A stretch of 64,000 nucleotides of DNA, taken from the NCBI GenBank assembly GCA_022706085.1, contig JAKJDF010000007.1, positions 10,474 to 74,473 on the forward strand. Direction: 5' to 3'. How positions within the stretch are numbered: the stretch's first letter is position 1; every line of letters starts with the position of its first letter. The stretch is from Candidatus Latescibacterota bacterium. Its GTDB lineage: Bacteria; Latescibacterota; MWCZ01. A model generated the notes under the pieces. It worked only from the letters and a program-made list of their open reading frames with translations. It did no database searches and was not told the DNA's origin. Below are positions 2,748-63,215 of this stretch, piece by piece. The translations under genes were made by a program, and so were the position numbers.

Positions 2748-3368
2748 GTGCGGATGGAGATGAAACTCTTCGCGGTTCTCACGGGCGCGTCAATTGCCCT
2801 CGCAGCGGGCGTTCTTGCGTGGTGGAGCGCGGCGATTCTGTCAATTCTGAGATGGGTTCCCCTCACGGACTCCGCGATCGCATGGGTGGCGTGTTCGGGC
2901 CTTGTGGCGGGGCTTTTTCTTGCAGGAGTGTGGTACCGGAGAAACGCAGGCAGAGTGTTCTCGATTCCGATGGGCCAACTTGCGGTTCTGTACGTCATCT
3001 GGTCGGTGTTTTCCTTTGCGTTTTTCATGGGTTTTCCTTTTGGTGCGTTTCTTCTCGGGTGCCTTGCGGCGGTCTACGTGGGGCGTCGCGCCGCGTACGA
3101 GCACCGTGACGCGGGGTGCGGAGTCCGAAGGCGGGTGCGTTTCATCGGCGTTGTACTGGGCGTGGAGTGCCTTGCTGCGGGCTTTTTCGGTGCGCTGGGG
3201 GATCCGCACACGTGGCGCTTCGTTCTTTCTCTTTTTGGCGCGCAGATGCTGGCTGAAAGTGCGATTCTGAGCCTTTTGACGGTTATCGGCATGTGTGCGG
3301 TTCTCGTCTTCGTGCAGGTTGTTGTGGCGGGATGGATCGCCGGACGGGCCAGCCGGTGGGGGGCGTGA
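2748..3368 (+). CDS. hypothetical integral membrane protein
   Basis: 206-aa ORF with about six hydrophobic helices (e.g. LFAVLTGASIALAAGVLAWW, FGAFLLGCLAAVYVG); no recognisable family. Confidence 0.5.
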   Translation: MRMEMKLFAVLTGASIALAAGVLAWWSAAILSILRWVPLTDSAIAWVACSGLVAGLFLAGVWYRRNAGRVFSIPMGQLAVLYVIWSVFSFAFFMGFPFGAFLLGCLAAVYVGRRAAYEHRDAGCGVRRRVRFIGVVLGVECLAAGFFGALGDPHTWRFVLSLFGAQMLAESAILSLLTVIGMCAVLVFVQVVVAGWIAGRASRWGA

Positions 3369-3427
3369 GGGGGAGAGGTCGGGCTGGAGCTTGACAGGCC
3401 GGGTCGTGTTTTCGTATGCTAACTAAC

Positions 3428-3446
3428 CAGTCGGTTTAACCGACTG
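3428..3446. promoter_or_regulatory. palindromic operator candidate upstream of the TetR-efflux operon
   Basis: CAGTCGGTT-T-AACCGACTG, 9-bp arms perfectly inverted around one central base, about 30 bp upstream of the TetR start codon; typical TetR-family operator geometry. Confidence 0.4.
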
Positions 3447-3476
3447 ATTGGTTGAGCTGCGACAGGAGAAACTCCC

Positions 3477-4160
3477 ATGAACAGGGACTCAGATGCCCGC
3501 CAGCGGATACTCGATGCCGCAACCGAAGTGTTCGTCGACAAAGGGCTATCCGGAGCGCGCATGCAGGAGATCGCTGACCGGGCACAAATCAACAAGGCGA
3601 TGCTGCATTACTACTTCACCAGCAAGGAAAAACTGTACGAAACCGTCGTATCTACCGCCGTTCAGGGGATCATGGAACGCATACAGGGCGTTCTGAAGGG
3701 CAAAGACGTGCCGACGGAGAAGCGCTTCCTGTTGCTGGTTGACACGTACCTCGATTCGCTTTCGAAAAGCCCACATCTGCCGCGACTGGTTGTGATGGAC
3801 CTTCTCGCCGGCGGCGAGACCGTGATGAAAGCGTTTCAACAGGCTCAGGACAAAACCGGCTTCGTGGGGGCAAGGCCGGCGATTGCGCTGCTGCAAGCGG
3901 GAATACACGAGGGGGTGATCCACGAGCTTGACCCGAAACACACGCTGATTTCGACCATCGGGATGGTTGCGTTTTCCTTCCTCGCAGAGCCACTTCTGAG
4001 TTCCGTACTTCAGATTGAAGACCGAAAGGCCGGTCAGTTCTTTGCGGACCGGAGGCGAAACGTCATGGAGATCCTGCAACACGGCGTGCTGAAGGAGCAG
4101 GTTTCGACACGGGTGTCCACGATTCCAAGGGAAGACAAATGGGAAAAATGGCTTGGGTAG
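3477..4160 (+). CDS. TetR/AcrR family transcriptional regulator
   Basis: N-terminal HTH RQRILDAATEVFVDKGLSGARMQEIADRAQINKAMLHYYFTSKEKLY; 227 aa; stop overlaps the start of the downstream adaptor gene. Confidence 0.9.
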   Translation: MNRDSDARQRILDAATEVFVDKGLSGARMQEIADRAQINKAMLHYYFTSKEKLYETVVSTAVQGIMERIQGVLKGKDVPTEKRFLLLVDTYLDSLSKSPHLPRLVVMDLLAGGETVMKAFQQAQDKTGFVGARPAIALLQAGIHEGVIHELDPKHTLISTIGMVAFSFLAEPLLSSVLQIEDRKAGQFFADRRRNVMEILQHGVLKEQVSTRVSTIPREDKWEKWLG

Positions 4161-5125
4161 CTCCGGTGCTGGCGATCGGCCTGGGCGCGTGCTCGCGGGG
4201 TGCGTCTGACGGGGACATCACGGCGAGCGGAGTTATTGAGTGCACGGAGATCAACATCGCCACGAAAGTTCCGGGCATCCTTCGGGAGGTTCTGCCGCTG
4301 GAAGGGGACCTGCTGGATTCGGGGCAGGTTGTGGCGGTGATTGATCACTCGGACCTGGACTGGCAGAAATCGCAGGCGGAGGCACAACTCCGTATGGCGC
4401 GGGCGAACTTGCAGCTTGCGCTGAACGGTCCGCAACGGGAGGACATCGCGCAGGCCGAGGCCGCGGAGCAACAGGCTTCGGTTGCGCTGGAGGCGGCGAG
4501 GCTCGACCTGGAACGGGTGAGCCAGCTTGCCGCGGCGGGAACGGCACCCCAGAAACAGCTGGATGACGCACGGACGCGCGTTCGATCGGCCGAAGCGGCG
4601 CAGGCGATGGCCCGGGCGACACTGGCGAAACTTCGGGCGGGAACGCGTTTTGAGCAGATCGCGGCGGCGCGGGCGCAGGTGGAGCAGGCGGAAGCGGCAT
4701 TGAGTGCCGTATCTCAACGGATTGCTGACTGCATGGTGAGGTCGCCGGGAAAGGGGTATGTGACGCAGCGGATCGCGGAGCCGGGGGAGATGGTTCCCTC
4801 GGGCGGGACCATTGTGACGCTGTCGGAACTGGACCCGGTCTGGCTGAAGGTGTATCTGACGGAAGTTGAGCTGGCAAAGGTGCGGCTGGGCGGCACCGCG
4901 GAGGTGACGCTGGACGGCGAGCCTGATCACCCGCGCCGCGGTACCGTATCGTGGATATCCCCGAAGGCGGAGTTCACTCCGAAGAACGTGCAGACGAAGG
5001 AAGACCGGGTGAAGCTTGTGTTCGCCGTGAAGATTTCGCTTCAGAATCCGGACGGGTTCTTCAAACCGGGACTGCCGGCGGACGCGGTATTCAGAGCCGG
5101 CGACGGCACCGGTGAGCCGCAATGA
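4139..5125 (+). CDS. HlyD-family membrane fusion protein (periplasmic efflux adaptor)
   Basis: Lipoprotein-type signal (LAIGLGAC), Ala/Gln-rich coiled coil, C-terminal beta-barrel typical of HlyD/YbhG adaptors; ATGA overlap with next gene. Confidence 0.85.
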   Translation: MGKMAWVAPVLAIGLGACSRGASDGDITASGVIECTEINIATKVPGILREVLPLEGDLLDSGQVVAVIDHSDLDWQKSQAEAQLRMARANLQLALNGPQREDIAQAEAAEQQASVALEAARLDLERVSQLAAAGTAPQKQLDDARTRVRSAEAAQAMARATLAKLRAGTRFEQIAAARAQVEQAEAALSAVSQRIADCMVRSPGKGYVTQRIAEPGEMVPSGGTIVTLSELDPVWLKVYLTEVELAKVRLGGTAEVTLDGEPDHPRRGTVSWISPKAEFTPKNVQTKEDRVKLVFAVKISLQNPDGFFKPGLPADAVFRAGDGTGEPQ

Positions 5126-6111
5126 CGGAAGATGTTGAGCGGGCCGAAGGAACCACGCCCGTACCGGCGCTTGAAACCCGCGAACTGACGCGATTTTTCG
5201 GCACCACGCACGCGGTGAACGGCGTGAGTTTTTCCGTTGGTCGGGGCGAGATGCTTGCGCTGGTGGGCCCTGACGGAGCCGGCAAGACGACGACGATCCG
5301 GATGCTGACGGGTGTTCTGAGACCGACCTCGGGAACGGCGACGGTTCTGGGGCATGATCTCGTTCGCGAACGGGACGCAGTGAAGCGGAGTATCGGGTAT
5401 CTCTCTCAGGTGTTCAGTCTTTACGGGGATCTGACGGTTGACGAAAACATCGAGTTTTTCGCGCAGATTCACGGGGTTCGGCGATTTCAGAAGCGGCGGG
5501 AGGAGCTTCTCGCGTTTACGCGGCTGGCGCCGTTCAGGCGGCGTCTTGCGGGAAATCTTTCCGGCGGAATGAAACAGAAACTGGCGCTGGCGTGCACGCT
5601 GATTCATGCGCCAGCCCTGATTTTTCTCGATGAGCCGACGACGGGGGTGGATCCGGTTTCCCGGAGGGATTTCTGGATCATTCTCTCGGACCTTCTGCGG
5701 GAGGGGATCACGATTGTGCTGGCGACGCCGTATCTGGACGAGGCGGAACGGTGCCATACGGTGGCGCTGATGCACGAGGGCAGGATTATCAGAAGGGACA
5801 CGCCGACGGCGATTGTGGAGGCGTTTGGCAAGCGGTTGCTGGAGGTTGTATGCGAGGACGCCCGGGCGGCGTACCGCGCGATAAAACAGGCGCCGGAATG
5901 GGAGGAAGCGCAGATGTTCGGTTCACGCATCCATGTTCCGGTGGAGGATGTGGCTGCGGGTACGCAACGGCTTCAGCAGGCGCTGGAAGATATGCATTTC
6001 CACGTGGCGTCCATCCGTGAAATTCCCCCGTCGCTTGAGGACGCATTCATATCGGAGATACGGCATTCGGAAGGGCTGGTTGTTGGCTCCGAAGGAGGCA
6101 CCGCGGCATGA
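5122..6111 (+). CDS. ABC transporter ATP-binding protein (ABC-2 type)
   Basis: Walker A GPDGAGKTT, signature LSGGMKQK, Walker B IFLDEPT. Confidence 0.9.
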   Translation: MTEDVERAEGTTPVPALETRELTRFFGTTHAVNGVSFSVGRGEMLALVGPDGAGKTTTIRMLTGVLRPTSGTATVLGHDLVRERDAVKRSIGYLSQVFSLYGDLTVDENIEFFAQIHGVRRFQKRREELLAFTRLAPFRRRLAGNLSGGMKQKLALACTLIHAPALIFLDEPTTGVDPVSRRDFWIILSDLLREGITIVLATPYLDEAERCHTVALMHEGRIIRRDTPTAIVEAFGKRLLEVVCEDARAAYRAIKQAPEWEEAQMFGSRIHVPVEDVAAGTQRLQQALEDMHFHVASIREIPPSLEDAFISEIRHSEGLVVGSEGGTAA

Positions 6112-7511
6112 GAAGGACAGGGTGGTACGGCGCAAACCTCGCGGTTATCGGGAGCGGGTTGTTGTTCTGGAGTTCGGGTTCTGCTCAACCGGGGACGGCG
6201 GGAAACGGGCTCAGCCTGACGGTTGCGCGGGCGCGTGAGCTTGCGATGACCCAGAACGCCGGCATCAGAGCGTCCGCCCAATCGGTTGTTTCGGCAACGG
6301 CGCAGAGGAACGAGGCGCGGGCCGCGCGGTTGCCGGGTGTGTTGTTCAGCGCGCGGTACGCGCGGCTCAGCGATGTGCCGGACCCGGTGATCACGACGCC
6401 TTCCATGACGATCCCGACGGGTCCGGGAACCAGCATCACCACGCCTTCGACGCAGGTTTCTCTCGGGCCTTCCATTTTGAACTCGTACAACCTGACGGCG
6501 ACGGCGCAGGTGCCGCTGTTCACTGGTTTTCGTCTGGAGAACCGGGAGAAGGCGGCTGAATATGCGGCGAGGGCAGCCGGAGAGGAATATGCGGCGAGCC
6601 AGCGTGAGGTGGGGAACCGGGTGGAGCAGGTGTACTGGCGGTTGTATTCGGCGCGGGCGGCGGAGCGGGTGATTTCGGAATCGGTGAAGCTTGCGGAGGC
6701 CCATCTTGAGGATGTGCGCCGTTTGCACGCAGCCGGGATGGCGACGGCGGACGACATACTGGCGGTTGAAGTGCGTCTGTCGGAGGCGAGACTCCGGCAG
6801 ATACAGGCGGAGAATGCGTCCGAGCTGGTGCGAGCCACGCTGTGTAATCTGCTTTCGGTTCCGGTGAGCACGGAAATTGCGCTGGTTGACTCGCCGTCGG
6901 TGGTTGTACCGTCTGTTCCGGACCAGGACGCTCTGGTATCGGCGGCGCTTGCGAATCGGCCCGAGCTTCGTGCTCTGGCGTTCCGGAAACAGGCGATGGA
7001 GCGCGGGACCGCCGCTGTTGAGGGGGGAAAACTCCCTTCCGTGATGTTTCAGACGAATTACGAAGTTTCAAACCCCAATCAGCGCTACTTTCCGACCCGG
7101 GATGCCTGGCACGCCACGTGGAGTGCCGGGATGGGCGTGACGTGGACGGCCTGGGACTGGGGGATAGTGGGGCAACAGGCGGCGCGGGCGCGCGCCGAAG
7201 AGCGGCAGGTGGACGAACGATTGAACCAGTTGCGGGACGCCATCACGTTACAGGTGGTGCAGGCGCGTCTTGCGGCCATTGAGTCGAACCGCCGGGTGGC
7301 AGTTGCCGAGGAAGGGGTGCGAAGCGCGGAGGCATATCACCGGAGCATGCGGGCACGGTATTCCGCCGGGACGGCGACGAACACAGAGGTACTGGATGCG
7401 CAGATTCTGCTGGAACGGGCGCGGCTTGATCTGGTACAGGCACGGACGGACCAGAGGACGGCGGCGGCCAACCTCGCGTACGTGGTCGGCGACGAGCGGA
7501 CACAGGACTGA
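6108..7511 (+). CDS. TolC-family outer membrane efflux protein
   Basis: 467 aa, N-terminal signal peptide, internally duplicated alpha-helical/beta architecture typical of outer membrane efflux proteins; embedded in the efflux operon. Confidence 0.8.
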   Translation: MRRTGWYGANLAVIGSGLLFWSSGSAQPGTAGNGLSLTVARARELAMTQNAGIRASAQSVVSATAQRNEARAARLPGVLFSARYARLSDVPDPVITTPSMTIPTGPGTSITTPSTQVSLGPSILNSYNLTATAQVPLFTGFRLENREKAAEYAARAAGEEYAASQREVGNRVEQVYWRLYSARAAERVISESVKLAEAHLEDVRRLHAAGMATADDILAVEVRLSEARLRQIQAENASELVRATLCNLLSVPVSTEIALVDSPSVVVPSVPDQDALVSAALANRPELRALAFRKQAMERGTAAVEGGKLPSVMFQTNYEVSNPNQRYFPTRDAWHATWSAGMGVTWTAWDWGIVGQQAARARAEERQVDERLNQLRDAITLQVVQARLAAIESNRRVAVAEEGVRSAEAYHRSMRARYSAGTATNTEVLDAQILLERARLDLVQARTDQRTAAANLAYVVGDERTQD

Positions 7512-7525
7512 ACGCGGGAGCCAGG

Positions 7526-8497
7526 ATGGCTGAAGGGTCCGCGCCGATCATTGAAACGCGCGATCTCACGCGGAAATTCGGGCAATTTGTTGCGGTTGAC
7601 CGGGTGACGCTGCGCGTGAACAGGGGCGAGATATTCGGATTTCTGGGTCCGAACGGGGCGGGAAAGTCCACGACGATCCGGATGCTCTGCGGGATTCTTG
7701 CGCCCACTTCGGGGACGGCGCTGGTGGGCGGGTTCGACGTTGCGCGCGAGCCTGACCGGGTGAAGGAGCACATCGGCTACATGTCGCAGCGGTTTTCGCT
7801 CTACCCTGACCTGACGGTCGCGGAGAACATCCGTTTTTATGGAGGGATTTACGGGCTTTCCTCGCAGCAGTTGCGGGAGCGGGGGGCGTGGGCGGTGGAA
7901 ATGGCCGGTCTGAGGGGCCGGGAGGACCACCTGACGCGAGAGCTTGCAGGGGGGTGGAAGCAGCGTCTTGCGCTGGGATGCGCGATACTGCACGAGCCGC
8001 CGATTCTGTTTCTGGACGAGCCGACGTCGGGGGTGGACCCGATTTCCCGCCGCCGGTTCTGGGACCTGATTTACGAGCTTGCGGGGCACGGAACGACGGT
8101 GTTCGTGACGACCCACTTTCTTGATGAAGCGGAACATTGCGACCGTCTGGTGCTGATTTACCGCGGCCGCGTTATCGCGCTGGGAACGCCGGATGAACTG
8201 AGACACACGGCGATCCGGGGAACGATTCTTTCCGTGCGGTGCAGGGATGCGAACAACGCGGTGGAGCTTCTGCGGGAGGTGGACGGCGTGCGGCGGGTGG
8301 CATTGTTCGGGGCTTCGGTGCACGTGATTACTGACACGCCGAAGGAAACCTCGGCGGCGATCATTTCGCGGCTGGGTGAGGCGGGAAGCGGGATTGACGG
8401 GATTTCGGAGGTGCCGCCCTCGCTGGAGGATGTGTTTATCGCGCTTATCGAGCAGGCGGACGCGGAAGCTCCGGCGGCGGAGGTGCGCGGAAGATGA
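7526..8497 (+). CDS. ABC transporter ATP-binding protein (ABC-2 type), second copy
   Basis: Walker A GPNGAGKST, signature LAGGWKQR, Walker B LFLDEPT. Confidence 0.9.
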   Translation: MAEGSAPIIETRDLTRKFGQFVAVDRVTLRVNRGEIFGFLGPNGAGKSTTIRMLCGILAPTSGTALVGGFDVAREPDRVKEHIGYMSQRFSLYPDLTVAENIRFYGGIYGLSSQQLRERGAWAVEMAGLRGREDHLTRELAGGWKQRLALGCAILHEPPILFLDEPTSGVDPISRRRFWDLIYELAGHGTTVFVTTHFLDEAEHCDRLVLIYRGRVIALGTPDELRHTAIRGTILSVRCRDANNAVELLREVDGVRRVALFGASVHVITDTPKETSAAIISRLGEAGSGIDGISEVPPSLEDVFIALIEQADAEAPAAEVRGR

Positions 8498-9639
8498 ACC
8501 GGGCGCGGCTGTGGCGGCTTTACGGCGTTATCGTGAAGGAATTCCGTCAGATGCGGCGGGACATGATCAGTCTTTCGGTGCTGCTTCTGGTTCCCGCACT
8601 TCTTCTGGCGCTGTACGGGTATGCCCTGACGTTTGACGTGAAGCACATACGCGTGGTTGTTCTGAACCACGACAAGGGCGCATTCAGCAGGCAATTCACG
8701 GAGGGGCTTTTCCAGTCGGAGTACTTCGATTTCGCCGGGACGATTGACCGGGAGGCAGAAGCCACCCGTTGGCTGGACAGGGGCGACGCACTGGCGGTGC
8801 TGGTTTTTCCGCCGGATTTCGGGAAGGCGCTGCGGGACGGGCGAACCGCGACTGCTCAGGTGCTGATTGACGGTTCGAACGCGAACACCGCAAGCATTGC
8901 GCTCGCGTATTTCACGGCCAAAGCGCGGGAATTTTCTGCCGCGCAGTTGCAGGAGTTCACCCTTGCGAGGGGGATTACGCAACCGGCGGTGCCGGTGGTG
9001 ATCGAGCCACGCGTGTGGTACAACGCGGAACTGAAGAGCTCGCAGCTGCTGGTGCCCGGATTGATTGGCTACCTCCTGATGCTTGCGGGGACGGTGGCGA
9101 CTTCCCTTTCGGTGGTTCGAGAGAAGGAAAGGGGGACGATAGAGCAGGTGGTGGTAAGTCCTCTCGGATCGGGGGAGTTCATTCTGGGGAAGACGATTCC
9201 CTATCTCGCCGTATCGCTTCTGACAAGCGGTCTCGTCGTCGCCGCGGGGATGGTGCTGTTCGAGATGCCGTTGCGGGGGAGCATCGCGTGGCTGTTCGTG
9301 ACGACGTTCGTGTTTTTGCTGGGCGCGCTGGGTCTGGGGCTCTGGGTTTCGACGCTTGTGGACACGCAACAGCTTGCGTTGCAGATCAGCCTGATCATCA
9401 CGCTCCTTCCGGCGTTGTTGCTTTCCGGAATGGTGTTTCCGATCGCGAGCATGCCCCGGGCGCTTCAGTGGGCTTCGGCGATTGTGCCGCCGCGGCATTT
9501 TCTGGTGATCATGCGAAGTATCCTGCTCAAGGGAACGGGGCCGCAGGCGTGGCTTGCCGAACTGGGGTATCTGATTGCGTTCGCCGTGTTCATTCTGGGA
9601 ATCGCGGTGGTTCGCACCCGGCACCGGAGCGAGGCATGA
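8494..9639 (+). CDS. ABC-2 family transporter permease
   Basis: 381 aa, N-terminal TM helix, large periplasmic loop, then 5 TM helices; ATGA overlap with the preceding ATPase gene. Confidence 0.85.
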   Translation: MNRARLWRLYGVIVKEFRQMRRDMISLSVLLLVPALLLALYGYALTFDVKHIRVVVLNHDKGAFSRQFTEGLFQSEYFDFAGTIDREAEATRWLDRGDALAVLVFPPDFGKALRDGRTATAQVLIDGSNANTASIALAYFTAKAREFSAAQLQEFTLARGITQPAVPVVIEPRVWYNAELKSSQLLVPGLIGYLLMLAGTVATSLSVVREKERGTIEQVVVSPLGSGEFILGKTIPYLAVSLLTSGLVVAAGMVLFEMPLRGSIAWLFVTTFVFLLGALGLGLWVSTLVDTQQLALQISLIITLLPALLLSGMVFPIASMPRALQWASAIVPPRHFLVIMRSILLKGTGPQAWLAELGYLIAFAVFILGIAVVRTRHRSEA

Positions 9640-10760
9640 GACGCATCCTGGAAATCGTCCGGAAGGAATTTGCGCAACTGAGGCGGGACCGGCGGCTGCT
9701 GGGGATCCTCCTTGTGGCGCCGGTATTCCAGCTTTTCATCCTCGGGTACGCTGCGACGACGGATCTGCGGGAGGTTCCGGTTGCGGTGTGCGACATGGAC
9801 AGGTCGGCCTCCAGCAGGAGCCTTCTGGAGGCGGTGAGCGCCAGCGGGGATTTCCGCCTGCGGTATTTCGTGGACGCGCCGCAGGAACTGGATGCGTATC
9901 TCGATCGCAACAGGGCGGATCTCGCGCTTGTCATCCCGCGGGACTACGGACGAAGGGTTATCCGGGGAGAGGCCGCGACGGTGCAGGTGCTGGTGGATGG
10001 AACGCGGACGAACGCGGGGCTTGCGCTGAGCCAGCTTTCGGGTGCGGTCGGCCAGCACGCGCAGTTCATACTGCTTGACCGCCTGACGAAGCGCGGCATT
10101 TCCGGCGAGCGCCCGGAGGTTCAACTGGCTACCCGGGTCTGGTACAATCCGGAGTTGAAGAGCCGGAATTTCATGCTCCCGGGGGTGCTGGCGCTTGTAC
10201 TTCTGATTATTGCGACGGCGGCGACATCCATGGCGATAGTTCGGGAGAAGGAGAACGGGACGATTGAACAGATCATCGTGACGCCTATCCGTTCGCTGGA
10301 GTTGATCGCGGGGAAATTGATCCCGTTCGCAATTGTCGGCATGGTGGAGGTTCTGCTGGTGCTGTCGGTAGCGACGCTGTGGTTCCGGGTGCCGTTAAAG
10401 GGGAGCGGGGTGCTTCTGCTGGCGCTGACGTTCCTTTTCGTCATCACGACTCAGGGGATGGGGCTGTTCGTATCCACCGTATCGCGGACGCAGCAACAGG
10501 CGATGATGATCATCATCTTTTTCATCGCGCTGCCGATGATTCTGCTCTCCGGCTTCGTGTTTCCGATTGAGAACATGCCGAAGCCGATCCAGCCGATCAC
10601 GTATCTGATGCCGCTGCGGTATTTCCTCGTCATTGTGCGGGGGATATTCCTGAAGGGTGTGGGGATGGAGGTGCTGTGGCCGCGGGTGGTGGCGCTGGCC
10701 GTGTTCGCGTTCGGGATACTGGGGCTTGCGGTGGCACGATTCCAGAAGCGGGTGGGGTAG
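9636..10760 (+). CDS. ABC-2 family transporter permease (paralogue)
   Basis: Starts MRRILEIVRKEF at an ATG overlapping the stop of the previous permease (ATGA); same architecture. The listed ORF 9015..10760 is an upstream in-frame extension. Confidence 0.85.
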   Translation: MRRILEIVRKEFAQLRRDRRLLGILLVAPVFQLFILGYAATTDLREVPVAVCDMDRSASSRSLLEAVSASGDFRLRYFVDAPQELDAYLDRNRADLALVIPRDYGRRVIRGEAATVQVLVDGTRTNAGLALSQLSGAVGQHAQFILLDRLTKRGISGERPEVQLATRVWYNPELKSRNFMLPGVLALVLLIIATAATSMAIVREKENGTIEQIIVTPIRSLELIAGKLIPFAIVGMVEVLLVLSVATLWFRVPLKGSGVLLLALTFLFVITTQGMGLFVSTVSRTQQQAMMIIIFFIALPMILLSGFVFPIENMPKPIQPITYLMPLRYFLVIVRGIFLKGVGMEVLWPRVVALAVFAFGILGLAVARFQKRVG

Positions 10761-46843: not shown

Positions 46844-46964
46844 TTTGCCCGTTGCTTCGGAGCCTTTTCCGGAGGATACCGCAGGGAACCCGGGAGGAAA
46901 CGGCGGGTGGACGGAGTTATCTTTTTTGAGACACTGGAGACACGGAGACGACGAAGGACGATAG

Positions 46965-48137
46965 ATGGCACAGAAGCGTGATTACTACGAAGTACTCGGC
47001 ATCGAGCGAACCGCGAACGACGATGCCGTGAAGAAGGCGTATCGGAAGCTGGCTCTGAAGTACCATCCCGATCGTAACCCTGGCGACAAAGCGGCTGAAG
47101 AGAAATTCAAAGAGCTTGCGGAAGCGTACGAGGTGCTGAGCGACCCTGAGAAGCGACAGCGGTATGACAGATTCGGCCATCAGGGGGTTCAGGATCAGTT
47201 TGGTCAGGGCGGCTTCCAGTGGCAGAACTTTTCGCACGCGAGCGAATTCGAGGATATTTTCTCCTCGTTTTTCGGAAGCAGAGGATTTGAGGACCTTTTC
47301 GGCGGCGGAGGCACGCGCACGAGCCGGCGCCGGGGGGCGCAACAGGGTTCCGATGTGCGCGTATCGCTCAGTCTTCCGCTGGAAGAGATCGCCACAGGGG
47401 TGGAGAAGCGCATCAGGCTCAAGCGTGTGCAGGTGCGTTGTCCCACGTGCAACGGCACCGGCGGCAGGGAGGGATCGAAACCGACCACGTGCGTCGCGTG
47501 CGGCGGTTCCGGGCAGGTGCGCCGGATGCAGGGGGGATTCTTCAACCTTGTGACCGTGGTAACCTGTGACCGGTGCAACGGTTCAGGACAGGTGGTGACG
47601 GACCCGTGTCCCACGTGCCGGGGAACCGGGCTTACTGGCGACGAACGCACTGTTTCGGTGCGCATCCCCGCGGGGGTTGCGAACGGCAACACGATGCGCC
47701 TGCGGGGACAGGGGAACGCGGGGCCCCACGGGGGGCCTGCGGGCGACCTGCTTATCGACATTCACGAGGAAGAGCACCCGTTGTTCCAGCGGCAGGATGA
47801 CGATGTGGTGTATGAGCTTCCGATCAGCTTCAGCCAGGCGGCGCTGGGAGCGGATGTGGAGGTGCCGACGCTGGACGGGAAGGTGCGGATGAAGGTTCCG
47901 CCGGGGACGCAATCCGGCAAGGTGCTGCGGTTGCGGGGGAAGGGCATTCCGCACATGAACGGTTATGGCAACGGCGACATGCTCGTGCGTCTGCACGTCT
48001 GGACGCCGGTGAAGTTGAATTCGCAGGAACGGAAGGTGTTCGAGGAGCTCGCCCGCCTGGAGAAAAACTCCGAATCGGGGACTCCCGCCGGCGGGCGGAG
48101 TTTCTTCGACAAGGTGCGTGACGCGTTCAGGGAATGA
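46965..48137 (+). CDS. dnaJ: molecular chaperone DnaJ
   Basis: J-domain HPD motif ([10 protein letters not shown]), G/F-rich linker, four CxxCxGxG zinc-finger repeats ([32 protein letters not shown]). Confidence 0.95.
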
Positions 48138-54477: not shown

Positions 54478-54506
54478 TTGACGGCACACCCGGAAGGAAG
54501 TATAAT
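54478..54506 (+). promoter_or_regulatory. near-consensus sigma70 promoter of tRNA-Asn
   Basis: TTGACG, 17-bp spacer, TATAAT; ends about 30 bp upstream of the tRNA 5' end. Confidence 0.55.
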
Positions 54507-54537
54507 TTAACATTCGACATTTGCTGTCAGTCTGTGA

Positions 54538-54613
54538 TCGGGCGTAGCTCAATCGGCAGAGCGGGTGGCTGTTAACCACTAGGTTACAGGTTCAAGTCCT
54601 GTCGCCCGAGCCA
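54538..54613 (+). tRNA. tRNA-Asn (anticodon GUU)
   Basis: Manual cloverleaf: 7-bp acceptor stem (U1-A72), D-arm GCUC/GAGC, anticodon stem GGUGG/CCACU with loop CUGUUAA (GUU), T-arm ACAGG-UUCAAGU-CCUGU, discriminator G, encoded CCA; 76 nt. Confidence 0.85.
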
Positions 54614-54663
54614 TCATCCACAACCGCGGACCCTGCAGGGCTCAGCGGTTTGAAACTGAGAGC

Positions 54664-54705
54664 AGGGGAAGCGGTCGGAAAACGGCTGCTTCCCCTTTCG
54701 TTTTT
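54664..54705 (+). terminator. Rho-independent terminator downstream of tRNA-Asn
   Basis: AGGGGAAGC ... GCTTCCCCT (9-bp stem) followed by TTCGTTTTT. Confidence 0.5.
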
Positions 54706-54732
54706 CGGGGCGAATATCTGCGGAGAGGCTGT

Positions 54733-54759
54733 CTCACGCGAAGACGCGAAGAACGCGAA
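54733..54759 (+). repeat. CGCGAAGA-repeat element, copy A
   Basis: CTCACGCGAAGACGCGAAGAACGCGAA; three imperfect tandem CGCGAAGA units; member of a five-copy family. Confidence 0.6.
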
Positions 54760-54794
54760 TGGAAGAGCGTGAGGCAAACCGCAGGAGGGATACC

Positions 54795-55001
54795 ATGGCG
54801 GTGTTTGACTGGGCACTTGCACGTGCGCGAACGTTCACCGTGTGGGACTGGGGCGCGCTAAAACTGTGCCTCTTCTCGGCGGGATTGCTTGTGGCAAAGC
54901 TGGTGCCGGGCGTACTGGGGCTTGCCTGGTACTGGTACGCGCTGGTGTTCGCGATCACGTACGTCTGGGTGATGGTGCGGATGTTCGGGAAAAACGCGTG
55001 A
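54795..55001 (+). CDS. hypothetical small membrane protein (68 aa)
   Basis: GGAGGG ribosome-binding site then ATG; two predicted TM helices; flanked on both sides by copies of the CGCGAAGA-repeat element. Confidence 0.35.
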   Translation: MAVFDWALARARTFTVWDWGALKLCLFSAGLLVAKLVPGVLGLAWYWYALVFAITYVWVMVRMFGKNA

Positions 55002-55012
55002 GCAGAGCCCGC

Positions 55013-55041
55013 ATCACACGAAGACGCGAAGAACGCGAAGG
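55013..55041 (+). repeat. CGCGAAGA-repeat element, copy B
   Basis: ATCACACGAAGACGCGAAGAACGCGAAGG. Confidence 0.6.
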
Positions 55042-56785: not shown

Positions 56786-56807
56786 CTCACGCGAAGACAC
56801 GAAGCAG
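56786..56807 (+). repeat. CGCGAAGA-repeat element, copy C (shorter)
   Basis: CTCACGCGAAGACACGAAGCAG, 40-60 bp upstream of the sulfatase start on the opposite strand. Confidence 0.5.
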
Positions 56808-56859
56808 TTCGTGGACGTTGTGGACTTGTTGGACAGGATCAGCGGTACTGCGCCTCCGT

Positions 56860-58566
56860 TCAGGAATCCGCCTCACGGCTCACCGGAAGAATGAGCGATG
56901 AAGGGTATTTCGGGCTATGGAAAACCTTCTGCTCGGCGATCACCGTCTCTGCATCGAGAAGGTCATCTCTCCCTGTACCGTGGTTGCGATCATGATTGGG
57001 AAAGTCGCTGCTGCATATATCGAGTCGAATGCGGTGCCCCTTGCGGAAGCAGCACGAGGTAATTCCCATGCGAACGTGAAATCGGGTCACTTCACCGGGA
57101 ATCAGGAGGTCTTCCGAATCGAGTCCGTTGCGGTGCCGTGCGCGGACCATCCCGTAACACACCTCCATCGCTGCTCCACCGGGATCATCGTCCACGAGCC
57201 GGACAAAGAAATCAGTATCAACCGCAGAAGACGACGCGTACAGCACGACTTCCGGGTTTCCCACCACCTCGACGTCCTCTTCGAGTGGCGCGGTGCGGTA
57301 GCGCAGGATATCGTTCCGATAATCGAGGCGGCGGCGGTCGGACACGTTGTAGAAGTACGCCGTGTCCCACGGCGTCGGGACAGGATCAAACGGGTCGTGC
57401 GTGAACGTGTCGGGAGGCTCGTTTGTCCGGGGTTCGGCCAGCAAAGCTCCGGAACCTTCCGGAAGATGGGCGTCTCCCTCGCCTGCGAGGTAAAAGGTCG
57501 TGAGGTGGACGTTCGGCGGCGGCCACGTCTCCGCCGATTTCCACGTTCCCGATCCCATGACAAAGTAACGCACTGCCGGCTCTCGCGCTGTGCCATTGTC
57601 AATGCCCTTCAGCCAGTAGTCGAACCAGCGAATCTGCATCAGCTGGATGTTCACTTCAGCATCCTAGCCAAAATCCAACTCGCCCTGTCTGCGTCGCCCG
57701 AGGCTTACGTGATTCCAGGGCCCGATGATGACTTTTGTCTGATTGCGCGCTTTCTCAGACCGTGCATTCCTCCGCATGCCGATGAAATGCTCGATGCTGC
57801 AGCAGTGATCAAACCAGCCGGTGAAGTCGAGGTTGGGCACGTCAATGTCCCTGTGGGCCTCGTCAAATCTCCAGGGGCGCCGGGCAGGATGACGCAACCA
57901 GTCGGCCACCTGCTCTGCGAGCGGGGAAGGTAGATACCGGGCGACGTGGACCCACGGCAACAGCCCGAGCATTCTGCCCTGTTCGAGTTCATCCCATATC
58001 TTCGCTGCCTCCGCGGGTGTGTGAGGCGGAGGAAGGCCCTTCCGGCGCCGGAGATCCGGAGCGATGGTAGTCACCCACCATTTGGCGCGACGCGCCGGCT
58101 TGAACGCGCCGGGCCAGTCTATATCCGTCAATTCCGTCGGGATTGAGACGGCGCTCATCGCCACCAGATGTGGCGGCCGGAGCCGGGCAAGCTGGTACTG
58201 CATCCAGGCGTTGTACGAAACGCCGAATGTGCCGACCTTCCCGTTGCACCAGGGCTGAAATGCAGCCCATTCCACAGTGTCGTAGCCGTCCTCGGCGTCA
58301 CCCGTGTTCTCCTCAGAGAACACCTTGAATTCGCCCTCAGACGCGTAGCGACCGCGGGTATCCTGGGTGACGACCACGTACCCCGCACGGACAAAGTCCT
58401 CGAACCCGCCCTGAGCCTTGCCGTACGGCGTCCTCTGCACAAGCGCGGGGAAACGGCCTGATGAATCCGGACGGAACACGTTGGCGCGCAACGTGATGCC
58501 GTCCCGCATTGGCACGGGGACGTCACGTTCGACGATGATGCCCAACGCACCGGTCTCTTGCTCCAT
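56860..58566 (-). pseudogene. CocE/NonD-family hydrolase (S15 peptidase / alpha-beta hydrolase) interrupted by one in-frame TAG
   Basis: ORFs 57664..58566 and 56860..57654 are in the same frame, separated only by TAG (plus-strand CTA at 57664-57666); together 568 aa, matching the N-terminal hydrolase domain (VPMRDGITLRANVFRP...) plus C-terminal beta-sandwich. Confidence 0.65.
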
Positions 58567-58683
58567 GGCGTGGTCTCCTCCATATGCTAATTCGGATGCA
58601 GGCGGCGTAAGGTGTTCCCGGCGGCGCTCCTCTGATGGCGTGTTCGTTGCAAGAAGGCCGAACGGGGCCGCGATTGCCCTCGG

Positions 58684-60141
58684 CTATTTCAACACGACGT
58701 TCTCCGCGAATTCCCCTATGTACACGTTCGCTTTCTCAAGCGTCTTCATCCGGACGCCGTTGCGGTACAGGCCTTCGATTGTCACGTTTTCCACCCGGTG
58801 GTGCGCGTCGTATCCGCGAAATGACGATGGCGGCATCCGGTCCGAACGCACGTGGATGTTCCGATACGTGATGTCGGAAATGCGACCCCGCTCCTTCCTG
58901 CCTTCGCTGTATTCCGGGTGTTCGGTGATGCTGCAGCCCATCAACGTAGGCAACCACGGGGAGTGCGGATCCACCGGGAAGGTCTCCGCGTCGTCTCTCT
59001 GGATGCGCGGCCGCTGGTACACCGGGTCCATTTCCACCCGAATATTCTCGAACAGCACGTCGTGAACGTGGCCGTAATCCACATTGCCGATGTTCAGGGC
59101 GATATCCAGACTCCGGATCACGTCCATGTTACGGAAAGTCAGGTTGCGCATATGGTCCGCGCAACACTCCGCGCCGATTTCGAGGCAGTGGTCCCAATCG
59201 CACCAGACGACGCAGTTCTCCACCAGTATGTCCTCGCACACCTGCTGGTAGCCGAGGTGCCCTTTGAAGCAGATGGAATCATCGAAGGTGCGGACGAAGC
59301 AATCGGTGACGTGGCATCGGCGGCAGTTGTGAAAATCGATGCCGTCCGTGTTGAAGCGCCAGCTCCCGATGATCTTCAGATTCCTGATTTCGACATCGTC
59401 GCACCCCCACAGGCCGACGTTGTAGACCAGTGAATCACGAATCGTGAACCCGTCCAGAACCACGTCCTGACAGCGGATCAGCTGGATGGTGTGCTCTCGT
59501 TTCGCGTTACGGACGTCGAACATGCCATCGCCGAGTTTTTCCATCGGGAACAGGATGGTCTCCACGTTTTTGCTGTTATCCAGCACTCCCCGGCCGAGGA
59601 TGCGGATGCCCCGGCAGTCGGTGGCGTGGATGCAACCGTAAACGACAGCGCCTTCGTCAATGAACACGGTCTGGCCGTCTTTGAGCTCAAGGATTCCGAC
59701 GTCGTGGCAGCCCGGACCGAAGTAGATGGTCGCGGGGCCGTGCGGATCGACCGCGTAGTTCGCGGGCGGATCCGCGAACAGGTGCAGGTTATGGTGGTAG
59801 CCATCCATCTCGAGCGAGTAACCGCCCGGCGACGGGAGAATGAAGGTGATGACGCCGTTCTCGACCTGCGGGTGCACGTTCTTCGACAGCGGCCGCACCA
59901 CGACGTCCTTGAAGGCGCGCCCAGGCCGCACCTGAACGGTTACCGGCTCGGTCATCTCCAACGAGGTGAAGTACGCGATCTCGGATTGCTCGATCTGCCG
60001 CTGATGCCCCGGCCATCGGCGATTGAACGGCACGGCGGATACGCGGCAGAGCTGCACCGGGGCTTTCTGGCCGTCAAGCAGGCAGAGGATGTCGTCGGCG
60101 ACCGGTATTTCCCCGGGTACGCGATATGTGCGAGCGGGCAT
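58684..60141 (-). CDS. glycoside hydrolase family 28 (polygalacturonase-like, right-handed beta-helix)
   Basis: GH28 motifs NTDGIDF, FDDSICFKG and RN...; start MPARTYRVPGE after AGGAG. Confidence 0.8.
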   Translation of the reverse strand: MPARTYRVPGEIPVADDILCLLDGQKAPVQLCRVSAVPFNRRWPGHQRQIEQSEIAYFTSLEMTEPVTVQVRPGRAFKDVVVRPLSKNVHPQVENGVITFILPSPGGYSLEMDGYHHNLHLFADPPANYAVDPHGPATIYFGPGCHDVGILELKDGQTVFIDEGAVVYGCIHATDCRGIRILGRGVLDNSKNVETILFPMEKLGDGMFDVRNAKREHTIQLIRCQDVVLDGFTIRDSLVYNVGLWGCDDVEIRNLKIIGSWRFNTDGIDFHNCRRCHVTDCFVRTFDDSICFKGHLGYQQVCEDILVENCVVWCDWDHCLEIGAECCADHMRNLTFRNMDVIRSLDIALNIGNVDYGHVHDVLFENIRVEMDPVYQRPRIQRDDAETFPVDPHSPWLPTLMGCSITEHPEYSEGRKERGRISDITYRNIHVRSDRMPPSSFRGYDAHHRVENVTIEGLYRNGVRMKTLEKANVYIGEFAENVVLK

Positions 60142-60192: not shown

Positions 60193-60222
60193 CTCACGCG
60201 AAGACACGAAGACGCGAAGGGG
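60193..60222 (+). repeat. CGCGAAGA-repeat element, copy D
   Basis: CTCACGCGAAGACACGAAGACGCGAAGGGG, about 50-80 bp upstream of the GH28 start on the opposite strand. Confidence 0.6.
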
Positions 60223-60264: not shown

Positions 60265-60615
60265 CTACGGGACGTGCAGCGCGTGCGAAGCGACGAGTAT
60301 CACGAACGCGGAAACGCCCAGAACGCTGATGAGCAATTCCCGTTTGAACTTCGTGTACTCTCCGGCCTTCGCCGTCACGTAATGTACGAGAGCCTTCCAG
60401 TTCATGATGACATGTGCGACTGCGGCAACGAGAAACAGTAACGAGGCGGAGTTGTGAAGCGTCATGAACAGGTGGCTCCACCGGGTGTTGCCCTCATGCG
60501 AAGCGAGGTGGAGCGCGATGCCGGAGGGGACCAGCCACAGGCCGGCACAGAACAGGGCCACGGATGCAAGGGGGCGCACGCTGATGGCCGGTTTATCAGA
60601 CGATGCATCGTTCAT
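60265..60615 (-). CDS. hypothetical membrane protein
   Basis: About 116 aa from MNDASSDKP (GGAAAGG ribosome-binding site); 3-4 hydrophobic helices. Confidence 0.45.
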   Translation of the reverse strand: MNDASSDKPAISVRPLASVALFCAGLWLVPSGIALHLASHEGNTRWSHLFMTLHNSASLLFLVAAVAHVIMNWKALVHYVTAKAGEYTKFKRELLISVLGVSAFVILVASHALHVP

Positions 60616-60641: not shown

Positions 60642-60674
60642 CGCACGCGAAGACGCGAAGAGCGCGAAGGGGTG
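60642..60674 (+). repeat. CGCGAAGA-repeat element, copy E
   Basis: CGCACGCGAAGACGCGAAGAGCGCGAAGGGGTG, about 27 bp upstream of the membrane-protein start on the opposite strand, at the edge of the low-GC R-M island. Confidence 0.6.
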
Positions 60675-60736
60675 GATGGAGGGGGTGGAAAGGGCGCGTG
60701 GGAAGGCATTCAAACGGCATCCTTTTCGGTACCCGG

Positions 60737-61279
60737 TTACACCTCCTTCACGGGTAAACCGAACCAGGCAAGGGGGACTTCATTGAACTTGTAATGGCAA
60801 TTCACGCTTTGGATATAATCCAGCACATCCTTGTATTCTGGTTTCTTGAACCAATCGTTCAGGACGTAGACGTATTCGACCCGTAATCCCAAGGGACTGA
60901 CCAGTTTCAGATACTGTTTCCGTTTGAAATCGCAGGTTTGCAGTTTCTCGTCCACCGACCCTGCTACCTGTTGATATTTGACTTCGATGATGAACAAAGT
61001 TTCCCGCACAATGACCAAGAGCGCATCGTCCGGAAGCAGTTTCTTACTGATCTTGCTCTGCCAATCGATTCCGCGCTCGCGAAGAAACCGGTAAAAATCA
61101 TGCTTCCTGAAGCACCTGGCAACCAGCTTGCCTTCGAATAAAACATCCACGCCGGCCTTGCCATCGACTTGGACAATGTCATAACCAGGGATTTCCCGCA
61201 GAATCGTTGCCAGATCAACTCTGCTTTCGAAGCGCAACCCCGTGCGCGTGTTCGCTCCACCTGACCCACCGGATTTCAT
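60737..61279 (-). CDS. putative Type II restriction endonuclease (PD-(D/E)xK fold)
   Basis: 180 aa; candidate catalytic motif LLPDD...LFIIEVKYQ (PD...E-V-K); start ATG overlaps the methyltransferase stop (ATGA); local GC clearly below the window average. Confidence 0.55.
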   Translation of the reverse strand: MKSGGSGGANTRTGLRFESRVDLATILREIPGYDIVQVDGKAGVDVLFEGKLVARCFRKHDFYRFLRERGIDWQSKISKKLLPDDALLVIVRETLFIIEVKYQQVAGSVDEKLQTCDFKRKQYLKLVSPLGLRVEYVYVLNDWFKKPEYKDVLDYIQSVNCHYKFNEVPLAWFGLPVKEV

Positions 61280-62124
61280 GTTGATACCTGTGCGAAATTC
61301 AGCGAAGATAGTCTTTGATTGATGGCGTTCCCCAGTCGCTGCATCGACAATTTGACGAACTCGGCTTCCAGTTCGCAGCCAACGAATCTGCGGTTTAGGA
61401 GAACACACGCGACTCCGGTCGTCGAGCTACCGGAAAACGGGTCAAACACCACGTCACTTTCAACTGTGCTCGCCAGAATAATCCTCTCCAAAAGAGCCAC
61501 TGGTTTCTGGGTGGGATGTTTTCCGAACTCCTTTTCGGCGCCATTTGGGGCAGGAATGCTCCAAACAGACTTCATTTGCCTGCCGGCATTGAGTTCACGC
61601 ATTTTGTCGTAATTGAAACGATGTCGAGACTTACCACTCCTCGCAGCCCATATCACCGTTTCCGTCGAATGCGTGAAGTAACGACAAGACAAGTTGGGCG
61701 GAGGGTTTGGTTTTTCCCAAGTTATGTCGTTCAGGATTTTCATCCCCAGTTGCTGCATCGCATAACCGACAGAGTAAATCACGTGGTGAGTTCCCGAGAC
61801 CCAAATTGTGCCATCCGGCTTCAGCAGCTTTTGGCATCTTGAAAGCCATGTCCTGTTGAACTGATGATTCGTTTCCGCTCCATTGGACCTGTCCCACTGT
61901 CCCTTGTCAACTTTCACCATCCTTCCAGCGTGACAAGTAATACCGCCGTTAGAGAGGAAATAGGGCGGGTCCGCGAAGATCATGTCAAACCTGCCATCGG
62001 GGTATTTTCCGATGAGCATGTCCATGAACTCAATGCAGTCTGCTTGATAGAGCCACACACCGAACTCGTCATTGCGGAACACACATTGATTCGGCGCGAA
62101 TTCCGAGCTTTCCATCATTACCAT
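61276..62124 (-). CDS. DNA methyltransferase, beta-class amino-methyltransferase (probably N6-adenine)
   Basis: Motif IV DPPY (IFADPPYF) precedes motif I FDPFSGSSTTGVA, the order diagnostic of beta-class N6A/N4C methyltransferases; low-GC region. Confidence 0.85.
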   Translation of the reverse strand: MVMMESSEFAPNQCVFRNDEFGVWLYQADCIEFMDMLIGKYPDGRFDMIFADPPYFLSNGGITCHAGRMVKVDKGQWDRSNGAETNHQFNRTWLSRCQKLLKPDGTIWVSGTHHVIYSVGYAMQQLGMKILNDITWEKPNPPPNLSCRYFTHSTETVIWAARSGKSRHRFNYDKMRELNAGRQMKSVWSIPAPNGAEKEFGKHPTQKPVALLERIILASTVESDVVFDPFSGSSTTGVACVLLNRRFVGCELEAEFVKLSMQRLGNAINQRLSSLNFAQVST

Positions 62125-62363
62125 CGGGAAGTCTTCTTTCTCCCCGATCCCACCGTATCCTTCCAAAGCGGACTCCCGATATTTGTCATACCGTTCGTGC
62201 CCTGTGTTTGTTGCACACGCCCCTTATCGAGGAGGCAACTGGGCATTTGCAAAACGCGAGGCAACAACTGAAAAACCCTTGAAACCGGGCGGATGAGCGT
62301 CCTCAACCTGATTACAGGCGCGCTCTGTTCGTGGAGTTATGTAACGCAACAACCCTGGACAAG

Positions 62364-63215
62364 TCAACCCCAAAGCCGCGAGTGCTTTCTCGCGTTATCC
62401 CACCCCGGTGGCTTGAGAAGCCTCGCTGCGCGCTTCTTCGCCTCTGACAGGAAAACCGCGCGATCCGTGAAGCGTGAGTTGCCGATGTCGGTTTCCAACA
62501 GGAGGTTGCCACGGTAGTCGAATGAATGGAACAGCTGCCGGAAGCGTTCCCAGTCGGTGGTGCCCTCCCACGGGAGAACGTGGGCGTCCCTCGAGCCGTC
62601 ATTGTCGTGGATATGGACAGTGAAGAGGCGGTGCCCGAAGCGCTCGAGCGTGGCGAAACTGCCGTCTTTCACGTGCTCGTGCCCGGAATCGTAGCAGAGG
62701 CCGACGTGCGGATCGGTGAATTCGTTCAGGAACGCGGTCAGCACGTCGTCGTATTCCTGTTTCTGGCCGTTTTCCATCGCCAATCTGACGCCGGTTTTGC
62801 CCGCGTAGTCCGCGAGCGCGCCGACGCTGCGGCGCCCCCGTTCGATCATCCGGTTCCGGGTGTCGCCTTCCGGGATGCCGTACGGCTGGATGAGGTGGAT
62901 GACGACGGTGCGGCTTTCCAGTTCTGATGCGGCGTCCATGACGAGCTGGCAGAGCCGGACGGATTCCGCGCGCTCGGCGTCATCAAGCGAGAAGAGCCGG
63001 TCGCCTTCGGGGAACGGTGCGTGGACGGAATCAACCGTCAGGCCGTGTTCTTCCATCAGTCTGCGGATCCCGGCTCTCCCCTCGGTGGTGGCATACCCCG
63101 AGTGCCCCGGCCGGCCGCCCAGCGCGACGACCTCGAACCCTGCCGCGGCGATCAACGCGACAGCTTCCGGGAACGGCAGGTTGTAGTCAAATGACGTGCA
63201 GATAGCAGGTTTCAT
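62364..63215 (-). CDS. sugar phosphate isomerase/epimerase (xylose-isomerase-like TIM barrel)
   Basis: 283 aa with conserved acidic/His metal ligands in TIM-barrel pattern (VHAPF, HLIQP, ENGQ, HIHDND, ETD); ATGA overlap with upstream gene. Confidence 0.75.
   Translation of the reverse strand: MKPAICTSFDYNLPFPEAVALIAAAGFEVVALGGRPGHSGYATTEGRAGIRRLMEEHGLTVDSVHAPFPEGDRLFSLDDAERAESVRLCQLVMDAASELESRTVVIHLIQPYGIPEGDTRNRMIERGRRSVGALADYAGKTGVRLAMENGQKQEYDDVLTAFLNEFTDPHVGLCYDSGHEHVKDGSFATLERFGHRLFTVHIHDNDGSRDAHVLPWEGTTDWERFRQLFHSFDYRGNLLLETDIGNSRFTDRAVFLSEAKKRAARLLKPPGWDNARKHSRLWG

Follow-up and report, generated by a model that had tools for sequence, protein, structure and literature searches.

The stretch analysed here is 64,000 nucleotides (nt) of Candidatus Latescibacterota DNA (contig JAKJDF010000007.1, positions 10,474 to 74,473; referred to as the window), and the locus in question, at 54478-55041, consists of a tRNA-Asn gene followed by an open reading frame (ORF) for a 68-amino-acid (aa) small membrane protein that lies between two near-identical direct repeats, A and B. 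As a whole, the locus is probably best explained as a tRNA unit, an empty attachment (att) site, and a resident 68-aa gene between two dispersed intergenic repeats. Neither repeat A nor repeat B is an att site; the window contains five copies of one dispersed intergenic repeat, all on the same strand, and A and B are two of these. For the flagged locus this mainly clarifies matters: there is nothing unusual about the tRNA or the small gene, and the repeats do not mark a past integration. Of greatest interest at the locus is the repeat family. The features of the locus are:

54478-54506, + strand: sigma-70-like promoter of tRNA-Asn, TTGACG-17 nt-TATAAT, 11/12 matches
54538-54613, + strand: tRNA-Asn (GTT), CCA encoded (ARAGORN; Rfam tRNA, 70.4 bits)
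54608-54613, + strand: GAGCCA, predicted core common to attB, attL, and attR of a serine-recombinase island of relatives, unoccupied in the window (from homology breakpoints)
54622-54650, + strand: trailer hairpin 1 (AACCGCGG...CAGCGGTT), conserved in relatives
54664-54706, + strand: intrinsic-terminator-like hairpin (54664-54696), then a T-rich tail, TTTCGTTTTTC
54735-54761, + strand: repeat copy A, three tandem units CACGCGAAG / ACGCGAAG / AACGCGAAT, at the same place in four diverged alleles
54795-55001, + strand: small membrane-protein gene, 68 aa (OQB41056.1, BWY06_00959), ATG start, GGAGGG 7 nt upstream
55015-55041, + strand: repeat copy B, starting 13 nt after the stop codon of the 68-aa ORF

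A putative empty integration site at the 3' end of tRNA-Asn

In related strains, the 3' end of this tRNA gene forms the border of foreign DNA (loci of the comparison are referred to by L numbers). Homology to the window starts exactly at 54608, as given by the ends of the BLAST alignments, in L158 (96-98% identical) and in L160/L161 (85% identical). Beyond this breakpoint lies foreign DNA of lower GC content, the first ~60 nt of which are homologous between the L158 and L160/L161 lineages. In four other loci (L250, L251, L254, L256) homology ends at 54613, and an intact tRNA-Asn is followed by different DNA right after GAGCCA. Three forms of one site are thus recovered, because the empty, attL, and attR junctions all share GAGCCA. 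The unoccupied junction, ...GTCGCCCGAGCCA|TCATCCA, is found in seven loci (L001-L003, L240, L010, L159, L153), the attL junction, ...GAGCCA|AAATTCAATCC, in the four loci just named, and the attR junction, ...GGTTGCACATGGG|GAGCCATCATCC, in three (L158, L160, L161). The corresponding sites are:

attB: GTCGCCC-GAGCCA-TCATCC (longer attB sequence: GTCGCCCGAGCCATCATCCACAACC)
attL: GTCGCCC-GAGCCA-AAATTC
attR: CACATGGG-GAGCCA-TCATCC
attP, deduced: GGTTGCACATGGGGAGCCAAAATTCAATCC

Just past attL, a DUF2924 match (E = 1.3e-46) is followed by a Resolvase-domain ORF, whose N-terminal domain is matched at L250 12811-13071 with 28.4 bits against a cut-off of 23.3. The cargo beside attR is a RAMP protein or an OLD-family nuclease, and longer contigs add DUF2188, DUF87, NurA, DruA, and DUF499/HEPN; it is a defence cargo that includes NurA/HerA-like genes. 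Judged from these junctions, the last 6 nt of tRNA-Asn (54608-54613) are the putative attachment core of an integrative defence island of related strains, and the window represents the empty site. Two points weigh against this assignment: the recombinase ORF is cut by a contig end, so that only its first 87 residues are recovered, and the island is seen as two junctions on separate contigs, with no single contig spanning it. One attL locus (L254) and one attR locus (L160) come from the same metagenome.

The initial annotation had pointed to the tRNA 3' flank as an integration hot spot and had proposed a search for an integrase or larger island at the same tRNA elsewhere. This expectation is borne out at the last 6 nt of the gene, in related strains, where a recombinase-bearing island is found and both of its junctions are recovered. 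Its statement that no integrase is present also holds for the window: among the window ORFs within ~9 kb of the locus, no recombinase family was found, in agreement with the gene calls of L001. No second copy of the tRNA 3' end occurs in the window, as a 25-mer from it is found once at <=3 mismatches. The window supplies an empty attB for a Latescibacterota serine-recombinase defence island that would target the last 6 nt of tRNA-Asn, and recovery of all three junction types from metagenomes provides a ready-made attB/attP pair for testing.

Several further observations concern the island and its assemblies. Its cargo differs between lineages and its ends are homologous. The L242 cargo (318-9924) comprises DUF499/HEPN_Swt1, DruA, NurA, DUF87, DUF2188, and the OLD nuclease, and the L158 cargo (6402-7394) three unassigned ORFs besides a RAMP-superfamily protein. 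In L158, ~150 nt inside the attR end, GTCGCAA(A/G) is repeated four times in close succession (5070-5130); the recombinase or a directionality factor might use these repeats as accessory binding sites. Short-read contigs (L001, L153-L155, L239, L241, and others) often break in or near tRNA-Asn or just past repeat B, which fits confusion of the assembly by mixed occupied and empty forms, or by the repeat copies.

The gene itself belongs to an ordinary tRNA-Asn transcription unit, composed of promoter, tRNA, structured trailer, and intrinsic terminator. ARAGORN and Rfam agree that tRNA-Asn(GTT) is the sole tRNA in the window, and it is the only family matched in the Rfam scan. The near-consensus promoter and the dedicated terminator named in the initial annotation are both present. 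The promoter-like site ends 31 nt 5' of the tRNA and is kept in two relatives (L240 and L250); two such sites were observed in the region against 0.3 expected from shuffles. The terminator-like hairpin, with 14 pairs (9 G-C), lies 50 nt 3' of the tRNA. Within the 100-nt trailer, two hairpins are predicted (-47.7 kcal/mol, z = -3.6), both kept in three related sequences. Hairpin 1, which sits 9 nt past the att core, contains one compensatory pair (C-G to U-A) across 4 sequences; it may be part of the recombinase's attB site or have a role in tRNA 3' processing.

The 68-aa gene is a resident of the locus

The 68-codon ORF just downstream of the tRNA has the substitution pattern of a coding sequence under selection. 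Compared with L008, the closest other lineage (88% aa identity), it shows 35 nt differences, distributed 8/5/22 by codon position, and a dN/dS of 0.10 at a dS of 0.77; no compositional anomaly was found in the ORF. The same protein, without any difference, is recorded as OQB41056.1 in Candidatus Latescibacteria bacterium ADurb.Bin168, which the genomic context of the locus also matches. By these measures, the ORF can be taken as a real resident gene under purifying selection. An exhaustive profile search retrieved 248 homologous cluster representatives (E <= 1e-3), mostly of 62-75 aa, and a Pfam search with the ORF gave 0 families at E <= 0.01. Its hydropathy profile consists of one continuous hydrophobic stretch (~residues 19-62), interrupted by an invariant K-L-x-P motif. 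This break fits two transmembrane segments, in line with the two-segment protein of the initial annotation. The gene family does not appear to be tied to the repeat, because a 39%-identical homolog lies in an AT-rich genome, in another context, without the repeat.

Loci L001-L010 were found through the 68-aa ORF itself, hence with a possible bias toward carrying it, and a second sample was drawn through the convergent sulfatase neighbour, which gives L158-L161. Where the sulfatase is >=90% identical, 4/4 loci carry the 68-aa ORF and the flanking repeats; where it is <=82% identical, 0/76 loci carry the ORF, tRNA-Asn, or the repeat. With the HlyD-type neighbour as synteny probe, the next relatives below 91% identity are <=62% identical and lie in unrelated contexts. 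The unit formed by copy A, the ORF, and copy B (A-ORF-B) is present in all 7 same-species contigs, in L008-L010, and in L158-L161, and no absence was seen among close relatives. Because it is present in every relative with a sulfatase >=90% identical, A-ORF-B does not appear to be a mobile mini-cassette on the sampled timescale.

In the initial annotation, A-ORF-B was read as possibly a small mobile unit, or as what an integration or excision event had left behind; such a unit would move through recombination of its two repeats with each other. The bracketing of the ORF by repeats identical at 25/27 positions agrees with this proposal, as does the likewise bracketed second small membrane gene of the window (DUF4405, between copies D and E). 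Segments neighbouring A-ORF-B do vary between strains, and Nostoc offers a VapBC cassette, enclosed by direct repeats with the motif, that one genome has and another lacks at the orthologous site (see below). Set against this are the occurrence of A-ORF-B in every relative found, including the loci selected through the sulfatase and not through the ORF, with the same repeat distances from start and stop, and the low dN/dS and unremarkable composition of the ORF. A distant homolog (P0003) has no repeat nearby, and a recombinase is lacking within ~9 kb. Copies A and B do not duplicate the 3' part of the tRNA, to whose end the repeat sequence bears no relation, and the true att core would lie elsewhere, at 54608-54613. 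A segment that is syntenic in relatives, with its repeats also at sites irrespective of tRNA, is what the initial annotation had named as speaking against its own proposal. A mobile unit or scar is very unlikely, and we consider this explanation largely refuted.

Five copies of a tandem repeat in the window

Copies A and B, which correspond to the near-identical 27-29 bp direct repeats of the initial annotation, are 27 nt long and have a start-to-start spacing of 280 nt. They share the exact 20-mer GAAGACGCGAAGAACGCGAA (54740-54759 in A, 55020-55039 in B), and a match at <=3 mismatches is expected 0.01 times in shuffles. Three further copies on the same strand (C, D, and E), not mentioned in the flagged observation, accompany them:

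56786-56806, + strand: repeat copy C, with just two units in this strain, ~40 nt 5' of the opposite-strand sulfatase start
60193-60221, + strand: repeat copy D (spacing 8, 8), between the DUF4405 gene stop and the GH28 gene start
60268-60615, - strand: DUF4405 gene (116 aa), the second one for a small membrane protein, between copies D and E
60642-60671, + strand: repeat copy E, ~30 nt upstream of the DUF4405 start

The repeat unit has 8-9 nt, RCRCGAAG, and copies hold two to four tandem units; the consensus of window-type copies is (A/T)(A/C)CC(A/G)CGAAG-(A/G)C(A/G)CGAAG-(A/G)(A/G)C(A/G)CGAAGG. The third unit of the three-unit repeat, after CACGCGAAG / ACGCGAAG, is also given as AACGCGAAG. 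The shared core of copy A ends 35 nt before the ATG of the 68-aa ORF. All five copies lie within 54.7-60.7 kb, with none in the other 58 kb of the window and no three-unit copies in its first 54 kb. L158 carries repeat copies at five consecutive gene boundaries, from the tRNA to the insertion point of a restriction-modification (R-M) module. Within a single copy, no inverted arms or self-complementarity were found; a 10-bp inverted repeat around copy A (54730-54739 / 54767-54776), which is not kept in L008, was dropped. A degenerate tandem-octamer-like stretch, GACACTGGAGACACGGAGACGACGAAGGACG, occurs at 46925-46965 in the dnaK-dnaJ spacer, directly 5' of the dnaJ start codon. It includes the dnaJ Shine-Dalgarno-like GAAGGA, and the same place in L250 fits the two-unit motif pattern.

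The copies stay put while the DNA around them changes. In four diverged alleles (window, L008, L010/L161, L159), the distance from copy A to the ATG is a near-constant ~32-35 nt and that from the stop to copy B 13-14 nt, and the spacers around the copies are only ~55-60% identical or have large indels. Between the window and L008, copy B has one mismatch over ~30 aligned columns, while synonymous sites differ by ~48%. Copy C is kept before the sulfatase while its flank is unalignable, with three units in L161 and L158 and two in L159. Invariant CGAAG cores against ~48% synonymous divergence argue for sequence-specific constraint or for homogenisation among copies.

Variable DNA is found at four places, namely the spacer between tRNA terminator and copy A, a 1.88-kb segment, the R-M module, and the tRNA 3' end; the A-ORF-B unit is never variable. 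The terminator-copy A spacer is empty in some strains, holds an MNT+HepT toxin-antitoxin (TA) pair in others, and a 286-aa MBL-fold gene in another, and the TA and MBL insertions end at copy A. The 1.88-kb segment (window 56805-58685) is bounded on its left by copy C; the window and L161 have it, and L158 lacks it. It contains a 264-aa ORF (56860-57654, - strand) that matches only the C-terminal PepX_C domain and may be a gene fragment or pseudogene. The low-GC module at 60690-62451 (GC 0.47-0.53 versus 0.62) begins ~19 nt beyond copy E; as it is absent from the 96-98% identical L158, it looks like a recent R-M insertion. Its genes are:

60740-61408, - strand: PD-(D/E)XK nuclease-like protein
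61276-62166, - strand: N6/N4 DNA methylase

The repeat family across genomes

One genome per GTDB species (185,579 genomes) was scanned with the pattern GAAGRCRCGAARRRCRCGAAGG. At least 120 stretches matched, against ~4 expected by chance. Among the matches listed, carriers span more than 10 phyla, a methanogen included. They comprise Cyanobacteria (Microcoleus, Tychonema, Nostoc, Stigonema, Dolichospermum), Planctomycetota, Verrucomicrobiota, Lentisphaerota, Kiritimatiellia, Acidobacteriota, Gemmatimonadota, Chloroflexota, Nitrospirota, delta-, gamma-, and betaproteobacteria, and Methanoculleus. The first unit (C-R-C just upstream), which lies outside the search pattern, is present in 122/130 matches listed, and their full consensus reads ttNACC(A/G)CGAAG(A/G)C(A/G)CGAAG(A/G)(A/G)C(A/G)CGAAGG. 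Unit types within one element are mostly uniform, with AAA at the A/G positions in 53 copies, GGG in 45, and mixed types in 24. Viral contigs gave only 16 motif matches, so phages are not the main carriers.

The copies also occur in higher-order arrangements. Of the pairs within 200 nt, 28 are convergent, and could form long hairpins, versus 2 divergent. In some genomes the motif lies inside ~250-nt palindromic elements, as in L129, a metagenome-assembled genome (MAG) of the Gemmatimonadales. There, two such elements (5800-6100 and 7540-7840), resembling miniature inverted-repeat transposable elements (MITEs), have four motif units per inverted arm and internal regions in opposite orientation. 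Paralogous three-unit elements with other cores (CACAGAG, CGCAAAG, CGCCAAG) stand in the same loci and number 0 in shuffles; these other cores suggest a superfamily set by architecture and not by sequence. Such elements are seen in L036, L028, L103, L112, L065, and L129, of various phyla, with CACGGAG and CACGGATT as further cores, and often begin with the same ACC(A/G)C.

The Nostoc pair mentioned above provides the one clean case of a mobile cassette between direct repeats that contain the motif. In Nostoc sp. JL33, a VapBC-like pair stands between two ~95-nt direct repeats (L121 1180-2232, compared with L122), and in the 92%-identical Nostoc sp. P12569 the orthologous site has one repeat and no cassette. 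The VapBC-like pair consists of a 102-aa ORF and a PIN-domain toxin, and the ~95-nt repeat of a polypyrimidine tract, the motif, and a further 37 nt. Two other candidates were rejected: in L048, the DNA between a + and a - copy encodes housekeeping enzymes and no transposase, and the tandem duplication of L031 proved to be segmental, covering part of an FTR1 gene, and not a cassette. No mention of the repeat sequence was found in Rfam or in the searchable literature, of which only general papers on repetitive extragenic palindromes (REPs) and MITEs touch the topic. A near-identical ~26-nt sequence of three tandem octamers, common to many phyla, calls for a shared recognition factor or a shared copying mechanism, and cultivable carriers (Nostoc, Microcoleus, Methanoculleus formosensis) make the question testable.

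Possible roles of the repeats

We tentatively propose, with rather less than even confidence, that the copies are kept by sequence-specific constraint. At orthologous positions the CGAAG cores would be held invariant while flanks and synonymous sites diverge, with changes confined to the A/G positions and to unit number. That these are the tolerated changes suggests a recognition array rather than an RNA structure, and the most likely form of the constraint would be that copies serve as recognition arrays for a putative DNA-binding factor. Dispersed identical sequences of 25-30 nt may also serve as seams for the gain and loss of strain-specific segments. A role as recombination seams is plausible and is suggested by the Nostoc cassette and by the breakpoints at copies A, C, and E. 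The 68-aa gene would then lie between two such seams, yet it is not itself exchanged in any relative sampled.

Several results weigh against constraint and seams. No binding factor was identified, and no gene family is enriched beside the copies, as 144 ORFs flanking copies fall into 228 Pfam families, with top counts of 4 (ABC_tran, AAA domains) and 3 (including PDDEXK_3). Neither orientation nor distance preference relative to neighbouring genes was found among 130 copies, as judged with a crude greedy ORF caller that placed 46/130 copies inside likely spurious ORFs; same/same and opposite/opposite arrangements number 24 and 26 among these 130 instances. A lack of orientation preference is as compatible with selfish or neutral repeats as with binding sites, and taken together with the clustering of copies it suits a selfish repeat just as well. 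Instead of selection, gene conversion between copies could account for their conservation in place. As for the seams, direct pairs 200-3000 nt apart are not over-represented across 120 loci (11 direct versus 8 inverted). Breakpoints do coincide with repeats, but neither occurs outside short intergenic spacers, so that the statistical case for a link is not compelling. In L010 the crossover point was not the repeat itself, since the replacement extends beyond it as far as the ATG.

Alternatively, the repeats may be purely selfish micro-elements, MITE-like or resembling cyanobacterial small dispersed repeats, that spread by some copying process, do nothing for the host, and gain or lose units by slippage. 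We regard this as possible but on the unlikely side. The coexistence of solo copies, convergent hairpin-forming pairs, tandem arrays, and ~250-nt palindromes would be expected of such elements, and so would the paralogous families with other cores in the same three-unit architecture and the differing unit number between close strains. The missing orientation preference and neighbour enrichment also agree with it, as does the local clustering, with five copies in 6 kb of the window. On the other side, orthologous copies are near-unchanged while flanks and synonymous sites diverge, which is unexpected for neutral DNA unless it is homogenised. Moreover, neither a clean insertion polymorphism of a solo copy nor a target-site duplication was seen, and no transposase is associated with the copies.

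A role at the RNA level, for example as motifs in untranslated regions for translation, stability, or termination of adjacent genes, is most improbable. The sense orientation of copy A, ~35 nt before the ATG in four alleles, the position of copy B shortly after the stop, and the purine-rich, Shine-Dalgarno-like units (GAAGG) would suit it. However, the genes that copies C, D, and E precede lie antisense to them, the 130 instances favour neither sense nor antisense arrangements, no Rfam match exists, and a single copy lacks self-complementarity.

Beyond the proposed constraint, a wider reading would make the triple-octamer repeat and its other-core paralogs an undescribed cis-element class in bacteria and archaea, read by a putative conserved factor and marking the boundaries of exchangeable modules (TA, R-M, small membrane genes), with cassette-like exchange in the absence of an integron integrase. 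We consider this a long shot; if it were true, A-ORF-B in the window would be one resident module.

Comparison with known repeat and integration systems

REPs and their paired forms (REPINs) are short (20-40 nt), intergenic sequences in many copies, often arranged as inverted pairs that form long hairpins, with singlets also common (PMC3116915, PMC3733652). The window-type repeat is likewise short, intergenic, and multicopy, is often found in inverted pairs, and has no obvious coding function. It differs in that a single copy is not palindromic and consists of three tandem direct 8-9-nt units, without a GTAG or CGTC tag. Its sequence recurs from phylum to phylum, in contrast to REP families, which are for the most part restricted to a species or genus, and no RAYT was seen here. 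MITEs such as Correia and BOX/RUP offer a second comparison (PMC3184786). In some instances the motif forms the terminal inverted repeats of units 60-250 nt long (L110, L129). Most copies are, in contrast, solo, including all five in the window, which lie on the + strand, and neither a target-site duplication nor a parent transposon was found.

The small dispersed repeats (SDRs) of Nostoc, the subject of 2008 work by Elhai et al., are reportedly 21-27 nt long and intergenic in filamentous cyanobacteria and form eight families of differing sequence and shared architecture. SDRs are not known to have been described outside cyanobacteria. In size, location, and architecture, to which the comparison is confined, the two are alike as dispersed intergenic repeats of similar length, and Nostoc, Dolichospermum, Stigonema, and Microcoleus carry the motif. 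The difference lies in the occurrence of the present motif in more than 10 phyla.

With integron cassette arrays and clusters lacking an integrase (CALIN), the locus shares same-orientation short repeats between small genes, TA pairs included, in a strain-variable region. It differs by the absence of an imperfect-palindrome attC, of R''/L''-L'/R' boxes, of R'/R'' (GTTRRRY), and of IntI, by mixed gene orientations, and by a bracketed gene that is not variable.

Compared with genomic islands at tRNA 3' ends, the putative island uses a serine (Resolvase-domain) recombinase with a DUF2924 partner and not a tyrosine integrase, and its shared core has only 6 nt. The window site is empty, and repeats A and B are not part of it. 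In other respects the island of the relatives resembles this class: it is joined to tRNA-Asn, it carries its recombinase and its defence cargo at opposite ends, attL restores the tRNA, and the two junctions have a short core in common.

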